The notes: generated from the sequence alone by a model not told the origin. A DNA stretch of 60,737 bases from Aquificales bacterium (GCA_015487615.1 WFPJ01000121.1:1-60737); one strand, 5' to 3'; positions 37,442-50,820 are shown, counted from the stretch's first letter. A program made the numbers and translations.

Positions 37442-38098
37442 CTACACCCTTACACCAATTATTATAAGCACCGCACCTCCCAGCTTTACAGTTTTTTTTC
37501 TGACAGCAAATCCGTGTCTTTCAAGCTCTTCCCTTATCTGGTCATAGGTGAGGCTGTTTTCAAGTGAGTGGATGAAGAAATCCCACTTGTCTTTACCGAA
37601 GATAAGAATACCCACTGGTTTAAGGATGGTCCGAGAAAGAAATTTAAGAAGGTCTATAAGGGCTGTCTTATTAATATCAAGTATTCCTATTTTTCCTCCC
37701 TTCTTGAGAACCCTGCGAGCCTCTTCCAAAAATTTGTCCCTGTCGGTGAGGTGTCTGTAAACTAGTGAAAGGGTTATGGTGTCCGCCTTTTCGTCCCTTA
37801 TGGGCATGTTTTCCGCGTCCGCCACAATAAAGTGACAATCTTTGCATTTGTTAACTGCTAGCCTTAGCATCTCATAGGACAGGTCTAAACCGACAACTGT
37901 TTTGTATCCATTCTTTTTACCCTTTACTGCCACCTCCCCAGTGCCAGTGCCTACATCTACCAGTACATCTCCCTTTTTCGTATATTCAAGCATTTCACTT
38001 TGCCAGCTGTGGATCCTTTGTAAGGTTACAACTGAGAGGAAGCTGTCATATATTTTGCTTACTGAGGAAAAAATATCTCCTATAACTCTCTTATTCAT
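37442..38098 (-). CDS. UbiE/MenG-family SAM-dependent methyltransferase
   Basis: VDVGTGTGE SAM motif and UbiE-like FSSVSKIYDSFLSV. Start reset to MNKRVIG (38098); the upstream extension runs antisense through the riboswitch. Confidence 0.75.
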   Translation of the reverse strand: MNKRVIGDIFSSVSKIYDSFLSVVTLQRIHSWQSEMLEYTKKGDVLVDVGTGTGEVAVKGKKNGYKTVVGLDLSYEMLRLAVNKCKDCHFIVADAENMPIRDEKADTITLSLVYRHLTDRDKFLEEARRVLKKGGKIGILDINKTALIDLLKFLSRTILKPVGILIFGKDKWDFFIHSLENSLTYDQIREELERHGFAVRKKTVKLGGAVLIIIGVRV

Positions 38099-38125
38099 AG
38101 TGACATTATAATATTCCTTGAGGTT

Positions 38126-38348
38126 AGGTTTTGGGATGGCGGTGGGTGTTCGGGAAGTCCGGTGAGAATCCGGCCCTGACCCCGCAGCCGTGAGCAGGGA
38201 AGCCGAAAGGCGCCGAAGCCCACAGGCCACTGGCGGAAACGGTCTTGGGGCTGTTCCGTCGGGAAGGCGGGCGGAGGTTAAACCCTGCGAGGCGGAAGAC
38301 CGGCCCACCGCTACTCAGAACCAAACCCTCGGGGGTGTAAGGGTTTGG
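38126..38348 (+). promoter_or_regulatory. Cobalamin (B12) riboswitch including expression-platform hairpin
   Basis: A GC-rich island in AT-rich DNA. It contains GGGAAGTCCGGTGAGAATCCGG...CTGACCCCGCAGCCGTGA and GCCACTG...GGGAAGGC. A B12-box-like GAGGCGGAAGACCGGCC lies at 38289-38305. A closing helix pairs GGCGGTGGG (38139-38147) with CCCACCGC (38305-38312). A 3' hairpin pairs CCAAACCC with GGGTTTGG. TATAAT lies at 38107-38112. Confidence 0.85.
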
Positions 38349-39061
38349 TAAGGGTGATAATTTTACTTGTCTTACTTAAAGGGTTTACTCTGGGTTGTCC
38401 GAAGATTGTAAGCTTAGCTCCTTCCGTAACAGAGACTATTGAATATCTGGGTAAGGGTGAGTGTATAATAGCCACAACAGTCTATTCAAAGGACAGCAGG
38501 GAAAAGATTGGGGGTCTTGTTGATCCAGATGTTGAAAAGATAATAAGACTCAAACCCGATGTAGTAATATCCTCAACACTAACACCGCGGGACAAAATCA
38601 AAGCACTGAAAGGTGCGGGTATAAATGTAGTGGTTCTAAGATGGGATACGCTAAAGGATATAGAAGAGAATATAAGGGTTATAGGCAGGATACTCGGTGT
38701 AAAGGATGCGGAAGAGAAGGCTAGGCTATTCAGGAAAGCCTTAAGCTCTAAGGATAAGATAAAGGGAAGCGCACTTATATTTGTGGGTTGCAAGGAACTT
38801 ATAGTTGCGGGGAAGGGGACATACTTGTCAGATATTTTTGAGATAAAAGGGTTTAAAAATCTTGCCACACGCAAGGGTTGGTACAGGATAAATCTTGAGT
38901 ATATATACAATGTCAAACCCGATTTCATATTCACCTTCTGTGATCTTAACATTAAATTGCCAGAGCATATTAAGGTAATAAGGATTACTTCAAACAGGTT
39001 GTTAAAGCCTTCTCCCCTTGTTATCTATGCTTTGGGAGAGATAGGGAGGATACGTAAGTGA
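38345..39061 (+). CDS. BtuF-like periplasmic cobalamin/siderophore-binding lipoprotein (class III SBP)
   Basis: Lipobox LKGFTLGC and the Peripla_BP_2 pattern (IVSLAPSVTE...KPDVVI...). TTG start with SD GGGGGTG 7 nt upstream. Confidence 0.7.
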   Translation: MVRVIILLVLLKGFTLGCPKIVSLAPSVTETIEYLGKGECIIATTVYSKDSREKIGGLVDPDVEKIIRLKPDVVISSTLTPRDKIKALKGAGINVVVLRWDTLKDIEENIRVIGRILGVKDAEEKARLFRKALSSKDKIKGSALIFVGCKELIVAGKGTYLSDIFEIKGFKNLATRKGWYRINLEYIYNVKPDFIFTFCDLNIKLPEHIKVIRITSNRLLKPSPLVIYALGEIGRIRK

Positions 39062-39945
39062 TTATTATCTTGATTCTGCTGGCGGTTTTGTTGTTTCTGC
39101 TTTTTACCTTTTACGGAAATCCTAACTCATACATAGTGGAAAACCTCAGGATACCCAGAAATACTATTGCCTTTCTATGTGGAGGCGGACTCGCTTTAAG
39201 CGGGGTAGTATATCAGACCGTACTTAAAAATCCCCTTGCGGAGCCTTATATACTCGGGGTTGCTGGGTTTATACTTTTGGGCTATACAATAGGTAAGCTT
39301 TTCAAGGTGGAGGAAATAGGGTTAGCCATATCTTCAGTTGTTGCAGTGCTGTCGGTCTTGTACATATCAAAAAGACTACCTCCCAAACACATGCTGTTGG
39401 TTGGTGTGGGTGTTAATGCCTTCAGCGTTTCCGCTGTATTAGTGCTTTACTCTTTACTTGACCCATACAGTCTGAAAGAATCTGTTACGAAGACGATAGG
39501 AGTTGTACCTTATGTAAGCATATGGGCTGTTTTTATTGTTTCGCTTATAACACTTCTTGTGTTCTTCCTACTTATGTTAAGATCAAGAAACCTTGATCTG
39601 CTTAGTGTAGGCGAACTTGAAGCGGTTTCCTTTGGTGTTAATCCTTTAAGGGAAAGGGTTGTTTCCCTTGGGTTAACAACTATTTTGACAGCCATATTTG
39701 TATCCCTTGTTGGCTTGGTGGGTTTCATAGGACTCGTTGTTCCGCATATTGTAAGATTTATTCACTCCTCGGTTCACTCAAGTGTACTCCCCCTTTCCTT
39801 CCTTACGGGAGGCATTATCTTCATGGGCTCAGATTTCCTTGCAAGGACGGTTATATACCCGGCGGAGATCCCAGCAGGTGTTTTCTCTTCCTTAATGCTT
39901 TCGCCCTTGTTTATCGGTGTGGTGTGGAGGTTAAGACATGATTGA
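39058..39945 (+). CDS. FecCD/BtuC-family ABC permease
   Basis: About 9-10 TM helices with a FecCD-like PRNTIAFLCGGGLALSG and a C-terminal PAGVFSSLMLSPLFI. Confidence 0.8.
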   Translation: MIIILILLAVLLFLLFTFYGNPNSYIVENLRIPRNTIAFLCGGGLALSGVVYQTVLKNPLAEPYILGVAGFILLGYTIGKLFKVEEIGLAISSVVAVLSVLYISKRLPPKHMLLVGVGVNAFSVSAVLVLYSLLDPYSLKESVTKTIGVVPYVSIWAVFIVSLITLLVFFLLMLRSRNLDLLSVGELEAVSFGVNPLRERVVSLGLTTILTAIFVSLVGLVGFIGLVVPHIVRFIHSSVHSSVLPLSFLTGGIIFMGSDFLARTVIYPAEIPAGVFSSLMLSPLFIGVVWRLRHD

Positions 39946-40615
39946 GGTTTACAATTTGTGTGTAAAAAAGGGTAATAAGGAGATATTGAAGGGTGTGTCA
40001 ATGGAAGTGGACAAGAGCGAGGCTGTAGTCCTTATAGGGGAAAATGGTTCTGGTAAGACTACTCTCATAAGGGCTATAAGTGGGCTTGAAGATTATAAGG
40101 GTGAAATATACATAGACGGCTTTGAGCCTGAAAAAGGGGGAAGTGAGAAAATATCTGTCTTAAGTCAAGACTTTAACCCAGTTGGATATTTGAAGGTTTC
40201 GGAAATTATGGGATTTTGTGATTTTATAGATGAGGAGATTATTAAGGAATTAGGTTTGAATGCTTTGTTCAATAGCAGAGTGGGAAATCTTTCCGGCGGG
40301 GAGAGAAGGAGGGTGGGTATAGGCTTTGCTCTTATGAATGATCGTCCTTACATAATTCTGGATGAGCCTACCGCCAACCTTGATATATCCTACATAAACA
40401 GGCTTATAAACCTTCTCAGAAGGAAGGTTGAAGAGGGTAAAGGATTATTAATAGCTACTCACGATATCCTCTTTGCAAGGGAAGTAGGAGACAGGTTTGT
40501 ATTTTTGAGGGACGGTAAGGTTTTATATACGACGAATGAGGAAGGCTTTAACTATGCTTGCACAAAGGTTTTCGGAACGAATATGTACACGGAGGTAATG
40601 AAGAGGTGCGTATAG
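39938..40615 (+). CDS. ABC transporter ATP-binding protein (BtuD/FepC-like)
   Basis: Walker A GENGSGKTT, LSGGERRR, ILDEPTANLD. Confidence 0.8.
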   Translation: MIEVYNLCVKKGNKEILKGVSMEVDKSEAVVLIGENGSGKTTLIRAISGLEDYKGEIYIDGFEPEKGGSEKISVLSQDFNPVGYLKVSEIMGFCDFIDEEIIKELGLNALFNSRVGNLSGGERRRVGIGFALMNDRPYIILDEPTANLDISYINRLINLLRRKVEEGKGLLIATHDILFAREVGDRFVFLRDGKVLYTTNEEGFNYACTKVFGTNMYTEVMKRCV

Positions 40616-41364
40616 TCTGCCTTGCGCCCGAGATAATACCCATAATAAATGATTTGAATGCTATAAACAGTGTTGTCGGTGGTGTTTATTACGGGGGAAA
40701 ATGGAAGTTTAAAAGAGTTGGTACATATATAAAGTGTGATAGAGAGGAGATAAGGGCTTTAAAGCCGGATATCATATTCACTTCAACCTACGTACAGTCA
40801 CACATGGCGAGGGAGCTTGCCTCCGAAGGGTTTAATGTTGTCCATTTTAATCCTTTATCCTTGAGTGATATTCCCTTAACGATAAAAACTGTGGGTGAAA
40901 TCATAGGGAGAATAAGGGAAGCGGAGGTGATAATAAATAATTGGTATGATACCCTTGAGGAGATAAGTAGTATGTCCGCGGATGTGGGCGGAGTAAGGGT
41001 TTATTTTGAGGAATGGGATGATCCTCCCATATCGTGCGTAAGGTGGGTGTCCGAGGGTATTGAACTTGCGGGAGGTGTTGATATATTCAGAGATCTAAGG
41101 AAGGAAAAAGCTGAGGATAGGGTTGTTAATGTAAGGGAGGTGGTAAGGAGAAAACCGGAGGTGATATTTGTCTCTTGGTGTGGTAAAAGATTTAAAAAGG
41201 AGAAGATTATGAAAAGGGAAGGTTGGGAAGATATACCTGCGGTAAAGGAGGGCAGAATTTTCAGAATAGAGCCTGAATATATATTGCAACCCAATCACAA
41301 AGTCTTGATAGGAATTAAAAAGATTCAAAGGGTTTTAATGGAGGTTAGCCATGCTTGTTGTTAA
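40606..41364 (+). CDS. Second BtuF-like (class III SBP fold) protein with no signal peptide
   Basis: It begins [14 protein letters not shown] (GTG 40606, SD GGAGG 40591-40595) with no hydrophobic leader. It has KPDIIFTS and EVIFVSWCG blocks and overlaps both btuD and nrdA. Confidence 0.55.
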
Positions 41365-43648
41365 GAGGGGCGGAAGGCTTGAGGAACTGGATATAAACAA
41401 GATAAGGGTAGTCCTTCAGTTTGCATGCAAAGGTCTTGATGTTGATCCATTAGAGCTTGAGGCAGATGCACATATACAGTTCAAGGACGGTATAACAACT
41501 GAAGAGATACAACAGCTTCTTATAAGGACTGCAGCGGAAAAGATATCACCTGAAAAGACGGATTGGCAGTATGTGGCTGCCAGATTGCTCGTTTACGATC
41601 TGTACAAAAAGGTATCAAGGGTAAGAGGATACGCTATTAAGGAGTCAGACGGCACCTTCCAGCCTTATGACAAGGGCGGATTTTATGAGTTTATTAAAAA
41701 ATATGTAGAAAAAGGTATATACGGGGAATATCTTTTGGAGAAATATAAAGAGGATGAGATAAGAAGGTTGGGCGAAGCCATTCAAGAGGATAGGGATCTT
41801 CTTTTCAACTATACGGGTTTGAAGGTTTTAACGGACAGGTACCTCGTTAGAGATGAGGACGGAAGGATAATTGAGCTTCCCCAAGAGATGTATATGCTAA
41901 TTGCCATGACAATAGCCATCCCTGAAGGAGAAAGAAAGGTTGAGTACGCTTTAAAGTTTTACGATCTCCTTTCACAGCATAAAGTTTCCCTTGCCACGCC
42001 GACCCTTATGAATGCGAGAAGACCCCATACACAGCTTTCAAGCTGTTTTGTTCTGACAGTTGAGGACGACCTATATGACATATTTGATAACATTCAAAAG
42101 GCTGCACAGATTTCCAAGTTTGCAGGAGGGCTTGGTATATACCTCGGTAAAATAAGGGCATCAGGTGCTCCTATAAGGAAATTCAAAGGGGCCTCATCCG
42201 GTGTTATACCGGTTATAAGGGTTATAAATGATGTTATGACCTATGTGGATCAGCTAGGCATGAGGAAAGGGAGTGCATCAATTACCCTTGATATATGGCA
42301 TAAGGATATCCTTGATTTCCTTGAGGTAAAGACAAACACTGGAGACGAAAGAAAAAAGGCCCACGATATACATCCAGCTGTAAGCATACCGGACATATTT
42401 ATGAAGAGGTTGAAGAAGAGAGAAAAATGGACCCTATTTGATCCCTATTACACGAAGGGTGTGAAGGACGGCAAAAACCTTGAAGACTTTTATGGTGATG
42501 AATTTGAGGAGCTTTATATCAAGCTGGAGAAGGAGGTTCCCCCTGAGGCAAAAAGGGAGGTTGATGCCTTTGAGTTGTGGAAGAGACTTATAACAGTAGC
42601 CTTTGAAACGGGCGAACCCTATGTATTCTTCAGGGATACCGCAAACAGGTTAAATCCCAATAAGCATGCGGGAATGGTTTATTCAAGCAACCTCTGTATG
42701 GAGATAGTACAGAACATGTCTCCTACAGTTCAGGAAGGTTGTGAGCTTGACAAAAATACGGGAGAAATAGTATGCAGGAAGAAGGCAGGTGATGTAGTCG
42801 TTTGTAATTTAGGGTCCGTTAACCTAGGAAAGGTACATACGGAGGAAGAGATAAGCAAAACCTTGCCCCTTCTTGTCAGAATGCTTGACAATGTAATAGA
42901 GCTTAACTACTACGCTGTTCCAGAGGCGGAATATACAAACAAGCGCTACAGGGCAATAGGTATAGGTGTTTCAAATTATCATTATTGCCTTGTTAAACAT
43001 GGTATAAGGTGGGAATCGGAGGATCATCTTAAATTTGCTGACAGACTCTTTGAGCTTATAGCCTTCTATGCGCTGAAGGGAAGTCTTGAGCTTGCTAAGG
43101 AGAGGGGCAAGTATTCTCTATTTGACGGTTCTGATTGGAGTAAGGGTATATTCTTTGGAAGATCTATTGATGATATAGAGAAGGATAGCGAAAGGAACGG
43201 AAACAATCTTCCGTGGAGGGAGCTTTATGAGGAAATAAAGGAGAGCGGTATAAGAAACGCCTACCTGCTTGCCCTTATGCCTACAGGTTCAACATCCCTA
43301 ATAATCGGGGCGACTCCTTCAGTTGATCCCATCTTTGCCAAGTACTATAAAGAAGAGAATATGAGTGGTATACTTCCTCAGGTTCCTCCAGAGGTTGACA
43401 GATTCTTCTGGCACTACAAATCCGCCTATCTTATAGATCAAAGGTGGAGTATTGAAGCTGCTGCGGTAAGACAAAAATGGATAGATCAATCCCAATCACT
43501 TAATCTTTTCATAGATCCTGAAAATATAGATGGTCCCACCCTTGCAGGCCTTTATGAGCTTGCATGGGAGAGGGGCCTAAAGACAGTTTATTATTTAAGA
43601 TCAAAGTCAAAAACTGAAGTGGAGGAGTGTGAGTCATGCTCGACCTGA
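41351..43648 (+). CDS. nrdA: Class I ribonucleotide reductase alpha subunit
   Basis: ATP-cone [16 protein letters not shown], active-site LSSCFVL and SSNLCMEI, and a C-terminal redox pair CESC. 765 aa with no intein-sized insertion. Confidence 0.95.
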
Positions 43649-44676
43649 TGACAAGGAAAAGGATTTTTAATCCGGAAGGTGACAGAGAGGTTGACAAGAG
43701 AAAGGTAATAGGCGGTAACCCCACGAACATAATAGAGCTTAACAATGTGAAGTACAGATGGGCTTATGACCTTTACAGGACAATGGGTATTTCTAACTTC
43801 TGGATACCAGATGAGATAGCCATGATGGAAGATAAAAAGCAGTACGAAAGCCTCCTGTCACCTTATGAAAAGAGAGCTTACGAACTTGTTCTTTCCTTCC
43901 TTATAGCCCTTGACTCCTTTCAGGTTGACATGCTAAAGGAGTTTGGAAGATACTTTACCGCACCTGAAGTGGTTATGTCCGTTACCGCCCAGGAGTTTCA
44001 AGAGTCAATACATGCTTACTCTTATCAATACATACTTGAAAGCGTTGTTGATCCTGTTAAAGCAGACGAGGTTTACAACTACTGGAGGGAAGACGAAAAG
44101 TTGCTTGAAAGGAACAGTGTTATAGCGGAGGTTTATAATAACTTTATAGAAAAACCCACAGAAGAAAACTTTATAAAAGCAATTTTCGGCAATTATGTAT
44201 TGGAAAGTCTTTACTTTTATTCGGGCTTTGCCATATTCTACACCCTCGGAAGACAAGGAAAGATGACGAACACTGTTCAGCAGATAAAGTACATAAACAG
44301 GGATGAGCTTACCCATGTGACCCTCTTCAGAAACATTATCCATTCTGTAAAAGAGGAGAATCCAGATTTCTTTCCTCCGGAAATGATAAACTGGATATAT
44401 GAGTTCTTTAAATTTGCCACATATAAGGAGATAGAGTGGGGCAAGTATGTTACGGGGGGTCAGATATTGGGTATAAATGACATACTTATAGAGAGATACA
44501 TAAAGTATTTGTGCAATTTGAGACTGACACAGATAGGGTTGGATCCTTTGTTTCCCGAGATAACTGACAATCCCATGAAGTGGATAGATGAATTCAGAAA
44601 AATAAACAATACAAAGACAGATTTCTTCCAGAGGAAACCGCAGACTTATTCAAAAGCAAGTGAATTAAAATGGTGA
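43636..44676 (+). CDS. nrdB: Class I ribonucleotide reductase beta subunit (di-metal / tyrosyl radical)
   Basis: Ferritin-like ligands [14 protein letters not shown] (ExxH with Tyr at +7), ESLYFYSGF and RDELTH. Confidence 0.9.
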
Positions 44677-46499
44677 GCATGAAAAGACTTTTAATTCTAG
44701 TAGGACTGGGTTTGGGCTTTATAAGGGCGCAGGATCTTGAGCTTAAAAGTGTTGAAGTAAGGGCTTCACGCCTCAGGGAAGTTGCAACCCAGGGAACTGG
44801 GGACATGATCATTATGGACAAAAGGGAAATGGAGAAAAAAAGTGTTACAAGTATCTATGAATCCCTATTTGATGAAATTGGAATAGATGGGGTCAGGACA
44901 GGGCTTTTTGGTGCACAATCAAGCATTTATATAAGAGGTGGAAGAAGCAGTCATGTCCTTTTTATGTTTGAAGGTGTACCCCTTAATGATCCTGTCGGTC
45001 TCGGAACGTCTCAGTTTAGCAGGGTACCGCCTATCCTTGACAGGATGGAGATACTGAAGGGACCTCAGAGTGTATTATACGGTTCGGATGCAATGAGCGG
45101 GCTTATTTATCTTAGTCTTGACAGGGGAAGGGGTAAACCCGAGCTTACCCTTGATTTTATGTACGGTGAAAGGGATACCTTCAGAACTATGATAGGCTAC
45201 AAGGGTTCTTTTGACAGAATCCATTTCAATATACAGGGTTCTTTAATAAACACAAAAAATTACGACTTTACAAGAAAAAACGATTCTGCAGATGATGTTG
45301 ATTTTTATGGTAACTCTTCTCTGGCCTTTAAGGTGGGTTATGTATGGGACAGAGCTATCCTTGATGTGTTCTTTCTCGGTTATGATGGAAGACTTAACTT
45401 TGACAACTGTGCTGGCAGAATAGATGCTAAATGTATAGAGAATTCACTTATGAATTCCGGCGGTGTTAAGATAAGCCTTTATCCATTAAATAATTACAAT
45501 ATAAAATTCACCATAGGTAGGAGTGATACGGAGAGAGTATATTCTGGGGATGCTTCCTCCTTCGGAAGGTATAGGGGGCTTGTTTTCTATTCTGACATTG
45601 ATAATTACATTAAATTCAAGAAATTTGCCCTCTCTTTTGGTGGTACGATGAAGGAAGAGGCAGGAGAAACAAGTACAATTCCTGTAACACGCTTCAGAAC
45701 TAATTCTGTTTATTCAAACATTCTTTTTAGACCTATCAGATACTGGAATATTGAAGGTGGTATAAGATTTAATGACTCGGATACCTTTGAAGACAGAACT
45801 GTTTATAAAGCTGGTACATCCTTTTATATAAGACCTCTCAATGTTATCTTCTACGGAAGCTATGCAACAGCCTACAGGACACCCAACATTTTTGAATATA
45901 CCTACGGTAATACAGAGGGATTGAAACCCGAAGAGAGTGCGGGCTATCAGGCGGGTTTGAAGGGAAGATGGTGCAGGTTGTTTGCAGGTTTTGGTATATA
46001 CGAAACTTTTTACAGAAACCTAATAGATTATGATAGTAATACTTTTTCTTATATAAATCTCGGAGAGGCGAGGGCGGAAGGTAAGGAAGTATATATGGGT
46101 GTTTATATAACAAGATCTCTTACTGCAAGGGCGTTTTTTAATGACACATATTCCTACTGTATAACAGGGTGTGGATATCTTTCACCAAAAGAACAAGTTC
46201 CTCGGATACCGAAGGAAAAATGGGGTTTTGTGCTAAGAGGTACTTTAGGAAATCTTGATACAAACCTTAGCTTTGTAAGGACAGGGAAAAGAAAGGATGT
46301 TACATATGAAGGCGGTCAACCTTCCCTTGTGGAACTTGAGGGATACAGTTTATTGAACGCATACGTAGGTTACAAGGTGGGCGGTAAATATAAACTTTAT
46401 GTATACGGTATAAATCTTTTGAATGAGGATTATGAGGAGGTTTACGGTTATAATGTGCTAAGAAGATCTATATACGCGGGAGTGGAGGTTATCTATTAA
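44670..46499 (+). CDS. TonB-dependent outer-membrane receptor (BtuB-like by context)
   Basis: Signal peptide, plug domain (DRMEILKGPQSVLYGSDAMSG), a long beta-barrel and an aromatic C-terminus. It overlaps the nrdB stop. Confidence 0.85.
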   Translation: MVSMKRLLILVGLGLGFIRAQDLELKSVEVRASRLREVATQGTGDMIIMDKREMEKKSVTSIYESLFDEIGIDGVRTGLFGAQSSIYIRGGRSSHVLFMFEGVPLNDPVGLGTSQFSRVPPILDRMEILKGPQSVLYGSDAMSGLIYLSLDRGRGKPELTLDFMYGERDTFRTMIGYKGSFDRIHFNIQGSLINTKNYDFTRKNDSADDVDFYGNSSLAFKVGYVWDRAILDVFFLGYDGRLNFDNCAGRIDAKCIENSLMNSGGVKISLYPLNNYNIKFTIGRSDTERVYSGDASSFGRYRGLVFYSDIDNYIKFKKFALSFGGTMKEEAGETSTIPVTRFRTNSVYSNILFRPIRYWNIEGGIRFNDSDTFEDRTVYKAGTSFYIRPLNVIFYGSYATAYRTPNIFEYTYGNTEGLKPEESAGYQAGLKGRWCRLFAGFGIYETFYRNLIDYDSNTFSYINLGEARAEGKEVYMGVYITRSLTARAFFNDTYSYCITGCGYLSPKEQVPRIPKEKWGFVLRGTLGNLDTNLSFVRTGKRKDVTYEGGQPSLVELEGYSLLNAYVGYKVGGKYKLYVYGINLLNEDYEEVYGYNVLRRSIYAGVEVIY

Positions 46500-47155
46500 T
46501 GGGGGATCTTAAAAATAAAGCCCTTGCTGTTATAGATGCGTTGAAAAATATCTATAAAGATCCGAAGCTTGAACTTGAATACAGTAACCCATTTGAGTTG
46601 CTTGTGGAAGCCATATTAGCAGCTCAGGAGTCGGATAAAAAGGTTAACGCGGTTATGAAAGAGTTTTTTAAAAAATATAAAGGACCTATGGATATAGCAA
46701 GTGCGCCTTTGGAAGATCTGGAGAGGGATCTAAGCTCTATAAATTTCTATCGCAGGAAGGCTAAGTTGTTAAAGAGTTGTTGCTCAGCACTTATAGAACT
46801 TTTTGGCGGTAAAGTACCATCAAAGGTTGAGGACCTTATAAAGCTTCCGGGCGTAGGTAGGAAAACCGCAAATATGATAGTGGGCGGTGCTTTCGGGAAA
46901 CCTGCAATAATAGTTGACAGGCATGTTATGAGAGTATCCCAACGTATAGGTTTTACTACGCAGAAAGATCCAGATAAGATAGAAATGGAATTGAGGGAGA
47001 TAGTTCCAGAAGACAAATGGACATTATTCTCCCTGCTACTTCTTAATCACGGGAAGACCATATGTACTGCCAAAGATCCAAAGTGTGGTGAGTGTACTGT
47101 ATCAAAGGAGTGTGATTACTACAATCAATCTGTTTTGAATCATAATAAGGATTAA
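46499..47155 (+). CDS. nth: Endonuclease III (DNA glycosylase/AP lyase)
   Basis: HhH LPGVGRKTAN, catalytic-region VDRHV, and a [4Fe-4S] loop C-x6-C-x2-C-x5-C. TAATG-coupled to the receptor gene. Confidence 0.9.
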   Translation: MGDLKNKALAVIDALKNIYKDPKLELEYSNPFELLVEAILAAQESDKKVNAVMKEFFKKYKGPMDIASAPLEDLERDLSSINFYRRKAKLLKSCCSALIELFGGKVPSKVEDLIKLPGVGRKTANMIVGGAFGKPAIIVDRHVMRVSQRIGFTTQKDPDKIEMELREIVPEDKWTLFSLLLLNHGKTICTAKDPKCGECTVSKECDYYNQSVLNHNKD

Positions 47156-47192
47156 ATCAAATAATAATATTTTTAATAGGCAATTTTTTTAT

Positions 47193-47198
47193 TATAAT
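47193..47198 (+). promoter_or_regulatory. Candidate -10 box upstream of the oxidoreductase operon
   Basis: TATAAT in an AT-rich 75-nt gap. SD TAGGAGG (47217-47223) precedes ATG 47231. Confidence 0.3.
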
Positions 47199-47230
47199 AA
47201 TAAGCCCCATCCTTTTTAGGAGGCGCTGTA

Positions 47231-47473
47231 ATGTACTATGTTGCAAGGGTTATAAATGAAGAGTGTTCCAAGTACAACTGTAAACAGTGTACACTTTTTT
47301 GCCCGGAACCCAATACTCTCATGTATAACGATGAGGAGCATCATGCCTATGTCATATATGAGAGGTGTAAAGGATGCGCCCTTTGTGTTTATGTATGCTC
47401 TGATTTGCTCAGAAGAAATTCAATAGAAATGGTTATGGCTGAAAGTTTAGAAGAAAAAGGTGTATCAAAGTAA
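47231..47473 (+). CDS. Small ferredoxin-like (2x[4Fe-4S]) subunit of 2-oxoacid:ferredoxin oxidoreductase
   Basis: 80 aa with Cys clusters C-x4-C-x2-C-x3-CP and C-x2-C-x2-C-x3-C. Confidence 0.75.
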   Translation: MYYVARVINEECSKYNCKQCTLFCPEPNTLMYNDEEHHAYVIYERCKGCALCVYVCSDLLRRNSIEMVMAESLEEKGVSK

Positions 47474-47488
47474 ACAGGAGGTTTGTTA

Positions 47489-48055
47489 ATGGCAACCCTT
47501 GGACCTTCACATTATTCACCTTATCCCGTGGCTGTTTATGAAAATATTTTACCGCCTCCGCCGGGTAAGGCTTTGCTCTTTACGGAAGTTGTTGATGAAG
47601 AAGTAGCCATGAGGGAAGCGGCAAAGGCTATGCTTACAAGGGAGAATCCTACCATATTCCCAGGACCTCAAGTTATATATGCATGGAATGAGGAGGCAAA
47701 GGAAAAAGCAAGGCTCATAAGAGAGCTTGCTGAAGTACTTGAAGCAAAGATAATTCCTATGGTTGATTACAGACCAAAGTACCCTAAGATAGATCCCGAG
47801 AAGGAAATAAACCCTAACCATCCCAATCTTACCATATGGCATAACAATATAAAGGCTTGCATATTTGTTGGGGTTCACTGTCATTATGCAAATGTTGCCC
47901 TAAAGATAATAAGGGCTGAAACGGATTGCTTTACTATAGCCCTGTGCAGTAACGCGGGGCATGAGGATGCGATGATAACCCTCAGGGATCAGCATGCGGA
48001 AGAGTTGAAAAAGTTTATTGAGATTGCTAAGGAAGTTAAGAAGGAGGTGAAGTGA
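47489..48055 (+). CDS. About 21 kDa extra subunit of five-subunit-type 2-oxoacid:ferredoxin oxidoreductase
   Basis: No motif recognised; assigned by position between the ferredoxin-like and alpha subunits, and by tight coupling (TGATG) to alpha. SD AGGAGG (47476-47481). Confidence 0.5.
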   Translation: MATLGPSHYSPYPVAVYENILPPPPGKALLFTEVVDEEVAMREAAKAMLTRENPTIFPGPQVIYAWNEEAKEKARLIRELAEVLEAKIIPMVDYRPKYPKIDPEKEINPNHPNLTIWHNNIKACIFVGVHCHYANVALKIIRAETDCFTIALCSNAGHEDAMITLRDQHAEELKKFIEIAKEVKKEVK

Positions 48056-49257
48056 TGCAAAAATTAGGCGAGGAACTTAGAAATAGAGCGGGTCAAAAGA
48101 TAGTTGACCCTGAATATCTTTTATTTGAGGCACCGAGGGAAAAGGTTTTTATGACGGGTTCGGAGGTGGTTAAGGAGGCAGTTAAGAGGGCTTCCGTTGA
48201 TGCTTCTGTTTCATATCCTATAACTCCGCAGTCGGAGGCTGCGCATCTTATAGGTGAGCTGTGGGTTGAGGGATATGTAGGTGTTTATTTCCGAGGTGAA
48301 TCAGAATTCGGCGTTATGTCGGAAATAGCAGGTTGTTCTATGGCAGGTGCAAGAACCATAACAACCACATCGGGACCGGGAACTTTAAGGGCTATGGAGA
48401 ACTTCCCTATGTGGGCTGGTTCAAGACTTCCCATACAGCTGGTTCTCATGGCAAGGGGTATAAATTCACCCCTTTCCATTCAGCCAGATGATCTTGAGGT
48501 TTCTTTCCTTCTTGATACTGGATGTATGGTATGGTATGCGGAGAACGCCCAGGAACTTTTTGATATGATACTGGCAGGATTTGTTGTAGCGGAACAGCCA
48601 GATGTTCATGTTCCTGTTATAAATGTCATAAACGGCTTCTTTATTTCTCATACAAGGGAAAGTGTTATGCTTCCTCCCGATGATATAGCCCTTCCTCCGT
48701 ACAATCCCTATAAGGCACCAATGCCTCCCATAGATATGGAAATGCCCCCGGGTAGATTCCTCAGGGATCCCTTTGTAATGAAATCAAACTACATCTCCTA
48801 TGCAACCCATACAAGTTGGCAGTTTGAGGTAAGAGCTGCTATAGAAAGGGCAAGGCCTTATATAAAGAAATACCTAGGTAGTCTTATAGAAGAATTCGGT
48901 GATCCAGAAGCTGATATAGTTCTTGTGTCAACTGGTACTGGAGCAGCTCAATCAAAGGAAGCTGTCAGATTATTGGAAGATGAGGGTGTTAAGGCCAGGG
49001 TGGTAAAGCTAAGAACTATAAGACCTTTCCCCATAAACGAATTAAGGCAGGCTGTAAAAAATGCTAAAGTTATATTTGTACCCGAATTTAATGTTGTTGG
49101 CTGGCTTGAAAGGGAAATAAGAAGATACCTTTACAAACATAGCGATGCGGAAATTATAGGAGGACCAAGGGTTGCTGGTGGTATGACCATGCCTCCCGAG
49201 ATAATAGTTAAGGATGTTTTAAATTATCTCGGTAAGGAGGTGAAACATGTCTATTAA
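48055..49257 (+). CDS. 2-oxoacid:ferredoxin oxidoreductase alpha subunit
   Basis: About 400 aa with the pattern AVKRASVDASVSYPITPQSE typical of POR/KOR alpha N-termini. Confidence 0.85.
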   Translation: MQKLGEELRNRAGQKIVDPEYLLFEAPREKVFMTGSEVVKEAVKRASVDASVSYPITPQSEAAHLIGELWVEGYVGVYFRGESEFGVMSEIAGCSMAGARTITTTSGPGTLRAMENFPMWAGSRLPIQLVLMARGINSPLSIQPDDLEVSFLLDTGCMVWYAENAQELFDMILAGFVVAEQPDVHVPVINVINGFFISHTRESVMLPPDDIALPPYNPYKAPMPPIDMEMPPGRFLRDPFVMKSNYISYATHTSWQFEVRAAIERARPYIKKYLGSLIEEFGDPEADIVLVSTGTGAAQSKEAVRLLEDEGVKARVVKLRTIRPFPINELRQAVKNAKVIFVPEFNVVGWLEREIRRYLYKHSDAEIIGGPRVAGGMTMPPEIIVKDVLNYLGKEVKHVY

Positions 49258-50107
49258 TATATTTAAGATAAATGAAGATCTGAAAGAGTTTATACCTCAA
49301 GAGGTTATTGATCTTGAAGAAAAGGCAACATGGGGCAACCCTAAGAGGGGGGTCATGGATCTTCCCTACGCTAAGGAATTATTAGAAGAGCATTCCTTGT
49401 GTGCGGGTTGTCCCGAATCGATGGCTTTCAGGTATATATTGGCATCGCTTCCGAATCCTGAAGACACCATAATAGTTAACTCAACTGGTTGTACTTCACT
49501 GGTGTTTCCCCATATAGCCTTACATACAGTTCATTCACTCTTCGGTAATCAAAATGCGGTGGCTACAGGCATAAAGAGGACACTTGAATGGAGATTTCCT
49601 GATAAGGTTAAGGATGTTATAGTGCTCGCAGGAGACGGTGCAACCGTTGATATAGGTCTTGACTGTACATTACAGTCCTTTTTCAGACAAGAAAAGATAA
49701 CAACCATCTGCTTTGATAATGAGGTTTATGCAAACACTGGAGGTCAGGAGAGCGGAACAACCGTTCAAGGGCATGTATTTAAGATGGCGCCCAAAGGCAA
49801 GCAGTGGCCTAAAGTTCAAATGTGGCAACTTGCTATAGATTCTGGGTGTCACTATGTAGTGCGTATGTCCGTTTCTTCTCCGAAGAAGGTAGAGCAGGTT
49901 GTTAAGAAGGCTATATATGTTGCACGTGAAGTTGGACCTACTTATCTTCATTTTTACACTCCGTGTATACTTGAAATAGGTTTGAACTCAGATGACGGTC
50001 TTATGGAAATGAGGGATAAGGATAAGGAAAGGTTTAAGTTCTTTGAATACGTATCCCCGCAAGCTGAAGAGGTAATAGCTAAGAAGAAGGAGGAGGGCTT
50101 ATTATGA
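49247..50107 (+). CDS. 2-oxoacid:ferredoxin oxidoreductase beta (TPP-binding) subunit
   Basis: CAGCPE, TGC, the TPP motif LAGDGATVDIGLD and NEVYANTGGQ. Confidence 0.9.
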   Translation: MSINIFKINEDLKEFIPQEVIDLEEKATWGNPKRGVMDLPYAKELLEEHSLCAGCPESMAFRYILASLPNPEDTIIVNSTGCTSLVFPHIALHTVHSLFGNQNAVATGIKRTLEWRFPDKVKDVIVLAGDGATVDIGLDCTLQSFFRQEKITTICFDNEVYANTGGQESGTTVQGHVFKMAPKGKQWPKVQMWQLAIDSGCHYVVRMSVSSPKKVEQVVKKAIYVAREVGPTYLHFYTPCILEIGLNSDDGLMEMRDKDKERFKFFEYVSPQAEEVIAKKKEEGLL

Positions 50108-50820
50108 CGGAGATAAAAAGGAAGAGGGTAGGAATAAGAATGCCTGCCATCGGTGGACAGGGTGCAGTTACCGCTGCCCATATAATAGCTACCGCTGCGG
50201 ACTATGAGGGATACTATGCGGTTTCCAATCCGTTTTTCGGTGCGGAAAAAAGAATGGCTCCAGCGGAGAGTTATGCAAGAATAGGACTTGAACCCATATT
50301 TGACAGGGGAGAGGTGGTCTATCCCGATATAATAATGGTCTTTCATCCTCAGGTTATAACTATGGGTAAATCTTATACCATGCCCTTTTATTCAGGTATA
50401 AAGAGAAATGGATTGATAATAATAAATTCTGAAGATGACCTCCTTTCTAAGGAGGACAAGGAATACCTTGAATCTTTAAATGTCAGAATATTTAACTTCC
50501 CTGCAACTCAGATGGCTGCGGAGATTGCGGGAACAGAACTTGCTACAAACATGGCAATGATAGGGGCCCTCTTCGGTATTACAAGAATAGTAGGTACCGA
50601 GGCAATAGAAGAAGGTATAAAGGCAAGGTTTCTTAAAAAGTTTGTTGCTTCCGGTGGTACTGCCTCTCTTGATTCAGCACTTGAAAGGAAATTTAAAAAG
50701 AAGCTTGAACTTATAGAGAAAAATGTAAACACCGCAAAGGCTACCTATGAACTCGGACTTAAATGGGCTGAGGAACACGGTATAGAACCCTTTTTGCCGA
50801 GACCTACCGCAAAGGTATAA
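50104..50820 (+). CDS. 2-oxoacid:ferredoxin oxidoreductase gamma subunit
   Basis: GIRMPAIGGQGAVTAAHIIA, a typical gamma-subunit N-terminus. Confidence 0.85.
   Translation: MTEIKRKRVGIRMPAIGGQGAVTAAHIIATAADYEGYYAVSNPFFGAEKRMAPAESYARIGLEPIFDRGEVVYPDIIMVFHPQVITMGKSYTMPFYSGIKRNGLIIINSEDDLLSKEDKEYLESLNVRIFNFPATQMAAEIAGTELATNMAMIGALFGITRIVGTEAIEEGIKARFLKKFVASGGTASLDSALERKFKKKLELIEKNVNTAKATYELGLKWAEEHGIEPFLPRPTAKV

Follow-up and report, generated by a model that had tools for sequence, protein, structure and literature searches.

A cobalamin riboswitch ahead of B12-uptake and class I ribonucleotide reductase genes in an uncultured Aquificales bacterium: a probable B12-scarcity operon

A 60,737-nt stretch of DNA (GCA_015487615.1, contig WFPJ01000121.1:1-60737; hereafter the window, at its full length) from an uncultured member of the Aquificales (Aquificota), sampled in hydrothermal-vent metagenomes, contains one cobalamin riboswitch followed by eight overlapping genes, in which those of a BtuFCD-type B12 importer and of a BtuB-like receptor enclose nrdA and nrdB, which encode the B12-independent class I ribonucleotide reductase (RNR), and in which nth, the gene for endonuclease III, comes last. 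The genes probably make up one operon for B12 scarcity in a bacterium that is auxotrophic for B12, with the riboswitch governing the importer, NrdAB, the receptor and nth. The first-pass annotation, made from the DNA alone, had described one cobalamin riboswitch at the head of an overlapped set of btu and class I RNR genes of 8-9 kb, and the layout was found as described. It is a compact case of cofactor economy, in which one sensor stands over both the acquisition of a vitamin and the enzyme that can replace its use, and it provides a clean test case for whether a translational riboswitch can control genes several kb downstream. Moreover, because class I RNR needs O2 and NrdJ, the B12-dependent class II enzyme, does not, the arrangement suggests that the B12 of neighbouring microbes decides O2-free DNA replication in this vent bacterium.

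The assembly comprises 1.55 Mb at 39% GC (0.393) and is 99.5% complete, and an NrdA that is 97-98% identical is encoded on contigs JALWWX010000254 and JALWBR010000038 of metagenome-assembled genomes. Gene identities were assigned with the Rfam covariance model, with Pfam and NCBIfam-type profiles judged against curated cut-offs, and by comparison with structures in the PDB, and gene starts were set by profile coordinates. Conservation figures refer to a three-species alignment in which 85% of the columns are invariant across the region. The genus was sampled with four genomes, one of which (G003) is only 69% complete, and the phylum with 151 Aquificota genomes.

That the leader should score as a cobalamin riboswitch with the covariance model was borne out by a match to RF00174 of 72.7 bits (gathering score 31.5) that covers the full model (positions 1-189 of 189), and no second RF00174 match was found in the whole 1.55-Mb genome. 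The aptamer is 95% invariant among the three species, compared with 85% for the region, it contains an invariant B12 box (GCCACTG, 38226-38232), and its GC content is 67% versus 39% for the genome. Just ahead of it lies a candidate promoter, and a 60-nt stretch that starts at 38102 and includes the TATAAT hexamer (Table 1) is at least 97% invariant. On the opposite strand, a long open reading frame (ORF; 37442-38308, -) of the divergent ubiE/menG-like methyltransferase crosses the riboswitch, and the family match begins only at residue 72 of this ORF, such that the true start of the gene is near 38095-38098 (37442-38098, -).

In the leader of Escherichia coli btuB and in env8-type riboswitches, an L5-L13 kissing loop occludes the ribosome-binding site (RBS). 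In the window, the 3' end of the aptamer runs into a hairpin in which CCAAACCC (38321-38328) is paired with GGGTTTGG (38341-38348). The loop of this hairpin carries the Shine-Dalgarno (SD) sequence GGGGGTG (38331-38337), which agrees well with the anti-SD of the genome's own 16S rRNA, and the TTG start of the first gene (38345) lies within the 3' arm of the stem. Within the loop of the hairpin, CGGGG (38330-38334) is the complement of CCCCG (38180-38184), which is part of the aptamer's C-run loop (ACCCCG, 38179-38184). Complementarity thus links a loop of the aptamer with that of a downstream hairpin containing both RBS and start, and the predicted platform fits the L5-L13 kissing-loop, RBS-occluding translational type. 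The hairpin is invariant in the three species except for one loop base, and the TTG start is conserved while an alternative in-frame GTG (38354) is not. The three available leader sequences are 96% identical and hence too alike to give covariation support for the leader structure or the loop pairing. The same pair of a C-run loop and a G-run loop, UGUCCCCGCA and GCGGGGGUU, stands beside the SD in every riboswitch examined from a second family of the phylum, f4. There is no U-tract 3' of the hairpin, and folding together with a terminator scan gave no convincing intrinsic terminator after the platform.

The joining of B12 uptake with a B12-independent RNR had led to the prediction of a class II RNR elsewhere in the genome, and nrdJ is indeed encoded on contig C33 (TIGR02504, 559 bits versus a cut-off of 400; L001:818-3501, minus strand, equivalent to G000:C33), where the next gene encodes a DnaC/IstB-like ATPase. 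It is present as two ORFs, one of 724 aa and an overlapping one (ATGA) of 170 aa with a match to the C-terminal region of B12-dependent RNRs, and this split resembles nrdJa/nrdJb of Pseudomonas aeruginosa. Each of the four genomes of the genus has the same 728-aa open frame. A CobA-type adenosyltransferase scores above its cut-off and is encoded away from both the operon and nrdJ. No B12-binding domain (PF02310) exceeded its cut-off in a profile search of the genome, which argues against any MetH, mutase or B12-radical-SAM enzyme, and neither cobQ, cobS, a PduO-type adenosyltransferase, NrdD, QueG nor genes of B12 synthesis were found in the genome, which does encode MetE. The simplest reading of this gene content is a B12 auxotroph that would import cobalamin, adenosylate it and employ it for NrdJ only, NrdAB being the alternative to that enzyme.

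The order of the eight genes was given by the first-pass annotation as a substrate-binding protein (SBP) of the lipoprotein type, permease, ATPase, an SBP paralogue with no signal sequence, nrdA, nrdB, TonB-dependent receptor and possibly nth, and every one of these identities was upheld by profiles (Table 1). The first three genes have the composition of a BtuFCD-type II importer, with an exported class-III binding protein, a FecCD permease and an ATP-binding cassette (ABC) ATPase in one unit, and its assignment to cobalamin is by context since equivalog-level matches to BtuF (NF002894, 38.9 bits versus 234) and BtuC (NF003001, 136 versus 334) were not reached. The permease is single-copy in the genome according to tblastn, both class-III binding proteins of the genome lie in the operon, and two TonB_C proteins are encoded outside it. 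NrdA has an N-terminal ATP-cone (PF03477, residues 1-86) and shares 72-79% identity with NrdA of Aquificaceae. A 1-nt overlap, TAATG, joins the receptor gene to nth, and a paralogue of the latter (40% identical) is found on contig C94.

Table 1. Features of the riboswitch-headed gene cluster, with positions counted from the first nucleotide of the window.
Feature	Position	Strand	Evidence and remarks
Candidate -10 box TATAAT of the putative operon promoter	38108..38113	+	Read from the sequence; 14 nt 5' of the aptamer; invariant in three species
Cobalamin riboswitch aptamer, full length, with P6 extension	38127..38322	+	RF00174, 72.7 bits, E 5e-16
Predicted expression-platform hairpin	38321..38348	+	10-bp stem by folding; SD in loop, TTG start in 3' arm
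btuF-like substrate-binding lipoprotein (SBP1)	38345..39061	+	PF01497 (Peripla_BP_2), 71.9 bits; lipobox TLGC
btuC-like FecCD permease	39058..39945	+	PF01032, 207.7 bits
btuD-like ABC ATPase	39938..40615	+	PF00005, 90.5 bits; SD GGAGG 7 nt upstream
SBP2, leaderless BtuF-like protein	40606..41364	+	PF01497, 85.8 bits; C-terminus ...SHACC
nrdA, class I RNR large subunit	41351..43648	+	TIGR02506, 615.4 bits (cut-off 341)
nrdB, class I RNR small subunit	43636..44676	+	NF007184, 440.6 bits (cut-off 310)
BtuB-like TonB-dependent receptor	44670..46499	+	Plug and barrel (PF07715, PF00593), 609 aa
nth, endonuclease III, last gene	46499..47155	+	TIGR01083, 248 bits (cut-off 211.7)
nth-porD spacer, inferred 3' boundary	47156..47230	+	95% invariant, three species

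These genes likely form one transcription unit that extends from about 38120 to 47155. Every junction downstream of the riboswitch had been described as an overlap or abutment, and all seven are in fact overlaps, of 4, 8, 10, 14, 13, 7 and 1 nt in order. In a crude, SD-guided gene call for the whole genome, about 35% of 839 same-strand junctions overlap, so that seven out of seven has a probability of ~6e-4 if junctions are independent, and no other run of overlaps in the genome would be as long. The claim that internal terminators are lacking also stands, in that 14 terminator-like sites were counted versus 10.2 +/- 3.5 in shuffled sequences, and those within the operon are weak. Promoter-like hits (22) are fewer than the shuffles predict (29.8). 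Conserved non-coding islands are confined to two, namely the promoter and aptamer (38102-38310) and the nth-porD spacer (47171-47246). The latter contains a promoter-like TATAAT (47193-47198) and the SD of the por cluster, and from it the putative 3' boundary at 47155 was placed. A terminator after nth was sought and not found (folding z-score of the spacer 0.31). The 80 nt before nrdA are 0.81 invariant, which is below the regional mean of 0.85 and the 0.94-0.95 of the two conserved spacers. In the three species, codon positions in each of the eight genes bear the signature of purifying selection.

The regulation that we propose would operate as follows. When adenosylcobalamin (AdoCbl) is low, the leader would leave the SD free and the whole unit would be expressed, giving the cell more importer, and the O2-dependent, B12-independent NrdAB would supply deoxyribonucleoside triphosphates (dNTPs). 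When AdoCbl is sufficient, it would bind the aptamer, and the C-run loop (38180-38184) would pair with the G-run of the platform loop (38330-38334), thereby hiding the SD and the TTG start and stopping translation of the first gene. Rho might then end the untranslated mRNA early, or the mRNA might be degraded, so that importer, NrdAB, receptor and nth would fall jointly, and in the B12-replete cell NrdJ would take over the supply of dNTPs. Ligand binding, the kissing-loop switch, the single transcript and polarity that reaches nrdAB are all four inferred from the sequence. Control of nrdAB by B12 would have to be exerted by Rho polarity or mRNA decay, given that the platform is of the SD-sequestering type and that the downstream genes have SDs of their own.

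A number of observations weigh against control of all eight genes by B12, and the first of them concern distance. A platform lacking a U-tract terminator would act directly on the translation of no gene but the first, and a strong embedded SD (GGAGG or GGGAG) accompanies six of the seven internal starts and would allow independent ribosome loading if the mRNA persists, such that gene overlap alone would be insufficient to silence them. In addition, promoter-like hexamer pairs are present inside the SBP2 gene at 41060-41087 and 41258-41285, and L133, a diverged metagenome lineage with related genes, has a 120-nt AT-rich spacer (L133:1249-1368) before nrdA that is a possible promoter site. With nrdA situated 3 kb downstream of the aptamer, the reach of control is the weak link of the proposed regulation. 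The other observations concern what the genes encode. The best family of the receptor is TIGR01779 (TonB-B12), and its score of 191.7 bits is below the equivalog cut-off of 599.7. The substrate of SBP1 is not assignable from sequence, as comparison with the PDB identifies a generic class-III binding protein whose best solved relatives mix iron, haem and B12 binders, and its B12 assignment therefore rests on context. Finally, B12 control of a housekeeping-type repair gene such as nth would be odd.

The points about distance, along with the genome-wide frequency of overlapping junctions, are what would be expected of partial control, in which the riboswitch governs btuF, btuC, btuD and perhaps the SBP2 gene, and nrdA, nrdB, the receptor gene and nth are mainly B12-independent. 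Expression of these last four genes would then come from a promoter inside the operon or from read-through mRNA that persists, with translation by means of their own SDs, and the fusion would reflect genome compaction. We regard this as unlikely, if still a serious contender, because the region before nrdA has no conserved island, the 14-nt overlap between the SBP2 gene and nrdA leaves no non-coding room for a promoter, and promoter-like hits are under the shuffle expectation. The genome also encodes Rho, which makes polarity on untranslated leader-proximal mRNA plausible, and NrdR was not found in it, so that nrdAB regulation of the NrdR type is not expected. Furthermore, the genome has nrdJ, and repression of B12-independent RNRs (nrdAB, nrdDG) by cobalamin riboswitches has been established since 2003-2006 for genomes with nrdJ (PMC545781, and Rodionov et al., 2003, cited there; Borovok et al., 2006, as cited in PMC12528414).

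A transporter that is not specific for cobalamin, taking up haem, a siderophore or a corrinoid precursor and leaving the link between riboswitch and nrdAB as the sole B12-specific part, would accommodate the mixed relatives of SBP1, the low score of the receptor and the fact that this receptor, which is single-copy, and the permease are the only TonB-dependent receptor and FecCD permease detected in the genome and might serve iron too, but it is very improbable, since the genes are directly 3' of a cobalamin riboswitch, no solved receptor other than E. coli BtuB gives an end-to-end alignment with the window's receptor (27-599 to 7-584, E 2e-28; the next structure match, at 1e-11, covers the plug only), family f4 has the same unit of riboswitch, btuF, btuC, btuD and btuB, NrdJ needs imported cobalamin with CobA on hand to adenosylate it, and corrinoid precursors could not be completed as neither cobS nor cobQ was found.

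A single operon under B12 control has its closest known parallel in Streptomyces coelicolor, where a B12 riboswitch precedes the nrdABS operon (Borovok et al., 2006, J Bacteriol 188:2512, as cited in PMC12528414 and PMC8620254). The two systems are alike in having a cobalamin riboswitch upstream of class I RNR genes and NrdJ in the same genome, with B12 expected to turn the back-up enzyme off. They differ in that the Streptomyces riboswitch is directly before nrdA and acts on transcription, whereas in the window nrdA is the fifth gene and follows four transport-type genes. In addition, the window has a platform of the SD-sequestering type, its organism is a predicted B12 auxotroph, and NrdR was not found. 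With regard to the platform, kissing-loop cobalamin riboswitches were treated by Polaski et al. (2016, Cell Rep), as cited in PMC12528414. The window resembles the E. coli btuB and env8 systems in the complementarity between the C-run loop of the aptamer and the G-run loop of the RBS hairpin, in the lack of an intrinsic terminator and in the control of a B12 uptake gene. It differs from them in that the SD is in the hairpin loop itself, the TTG is in the 3' arm and the unit has eight genes, including a metabolic isozyme.

A related gene set within the Aquificota is that of the sister family f4 (L115-L120), in which both uptake genes and B12-independent isozymes are also behind cobalamin riboswitches, with the same btuF-btuC-btuD-btuB order and the same loop-loop design. 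However, f4 has two riboswitches and two operons (btuF-btuC-btuD-btuB and metE-nrdG-nrdD), its isozymes are MetE and the class III NrdDG, and the window has one riboswitch, SBP2-nrdA-nrdB between btuD and btuB, and proteins that are 24-42% identical to those of f4. The second f4 operon (L116:4684-11753, minus strand; also L118 and L120; genomes G041, G046 and G044) contains nrdD as two ORFs, then a pair of genes of ~355 aa for which no NCBIfam model gives a match, and is a fused B12-sparing operon of different composition. The operon of the window looks like an f4-type transport unit in which btuD and btuB are separated by SBP2-nrdA-nrdB. The 24-42% identity and the flat base composition favour neither insertion of nrdAB nor assembly around nrdAB as the route.

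What is new, then, is that both responses are joined behind a single switch of the translational type, with nrdAB located between inner- and outer-membrane transport genes, in an organism for which NrdJ is the single detectable use of B12. The novelty is one of arrangement, with well-known parts, and not of mechanism, in that B12 riboswitches before btu operons are textbook, and the understanding of riboswitch and RNR regulation is unchanged. Nothing specific on a fused btu-nrd operon was found in the literature, of which subscription papers were covered to a limited extent, and absence is not implied.

The first-pass annotation had called the physical fusion of the two responses unusual, and the comparative data agree, as about 45 Aquificaceae nrdAB loci (NrdA 70-83% identical, one 55%) have no adjoining btu genes and f4 divides the responses between its two riboswitch operons. 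Within the 151 sampled Aquificota genomes the package is confined to one genus. The riboswitch occurs in that genus and otherwise only in f4 (19 of 25 genomes), and neither it nor cobA was detected in the remaining genera sampled from the window's family. All four genomes of the genus have nrdJ, cobA and the receptor, and three have the riboswitch (none in the 69%-complete G003); nrdB, receptor and nth were seen together in the fourth, incomplete genome. The gene order is preserved in its entirety in two further species, in which the DNA is colinear and 88% identical from the divergent ubiE-like gene up to and including the por cluster. In comparison with these (L005 and L050), protein identity is 85-92% for btuF, btuC, btuD and SBP2 and 94-99% for nrdA, nrdB, receptor and nth, and this step reflects protein constraint and not a recombination boundary, since conservation at third codon positions is similar throughout.

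Lineage L133 keeps the same order (identities of 62% for the permease, 59% for the ATPase, 89% for nrdA, 94% for nrdB, 72% for the receptor and 71% for nth, the last with the same 1-nt overlap), from which it follows that the fusion predates divergence at the genus level. It has no SBP2 and has the spacer in front of nrdA, suggesting that SBP2 is accessory and that nrdA may have its own promoter in L133. A deletion remnant of SBP2 in this spacer was looked for, and only 7-10-mers at chance level were seen, a result equally compatible with a gain of SBP2 and with its loss. Relatives of the receptor at 70-71% identity are P0124-P0126. Recent horizontal transfer of the btu genes was considered and set aside, as GC is 0.39-0.43 throughout versus 0.393 for the genome and there is no compositional signal; no donor of the btu genes is identifiable, with receptor relatives outside the lineage being less than 30% identical.

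SBP2 is predicted to be cytoplasmic. Its GTG start (40606) has GGAGGT 9 nt upstream, and the in-frame extension is hydrophilic, with no hydrophobic one available. The best solved relatives are the BtuF structures 5ysc and 1n2z, and codon positions are 0.91/0.93/0.63 invariant, consistent with purifying selection. A hydrophobic N-terminus is missing in 116 of the 120 best homologues. The homologues, of ~260 aa, form a large family in many phyla, and many are labelled "cobalamin-binding protein" by their sources. No study of a leaderless BtuF-like family was found in a literature search whose coverage of subscription papers was limited. One speculative and rather doubtful possibility is that SBP2, translated together with the importer, might be a cytoplasmic cobalamin escort, which would receive cobalamin at the cytoplasmic side of BtuCD and deliver it to CobA and NrdJ, or shield it when the temperature is high. 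If this were true, SBP2 would be a bacterial counterpart of the eukaryotic B12 trafficking chaperones, the operon would be a self-contained cofactor-switch module that senses, imports and escorts the cofactor and provides the back-up enzyme, and acquisition of the module would have let one microaerophilic Aquificaceae genus make dNTPs without oxygen. The operon also points to a widespread family of leaderless BtuF-like proteins.

Three further observations concern related genomes and the flanking DNA. Two complete genomes of genus g11, in the same family as the window (G013:C1:1215360-1217540 and G022:C1:1212595-1214661), have an NrdJ-type RNR only, with an open frame of ~1010 aa, and a class I RNR match, cobA and a cobalamin riboswitch were not found in either. 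No cobalamin riboswitch was found in 44 genomes of family f3, and in this family nrdJ adjoins a cobA-like gene, which puts the enzyme next to the activation of its cofactor (G040:C4:7825-10547, G032:C8:245700-248335, G036:C1:418113-420850 and G026:C11:109969-112655). Downstream of nth, the window continues at 47171-50820 with a cluster for a 2-oxoacid:ferredoxin oxidoreductase that includes a porD-like gene, a gene whose 190-aa product matches no family, porA-like and porB-like genes, and more.

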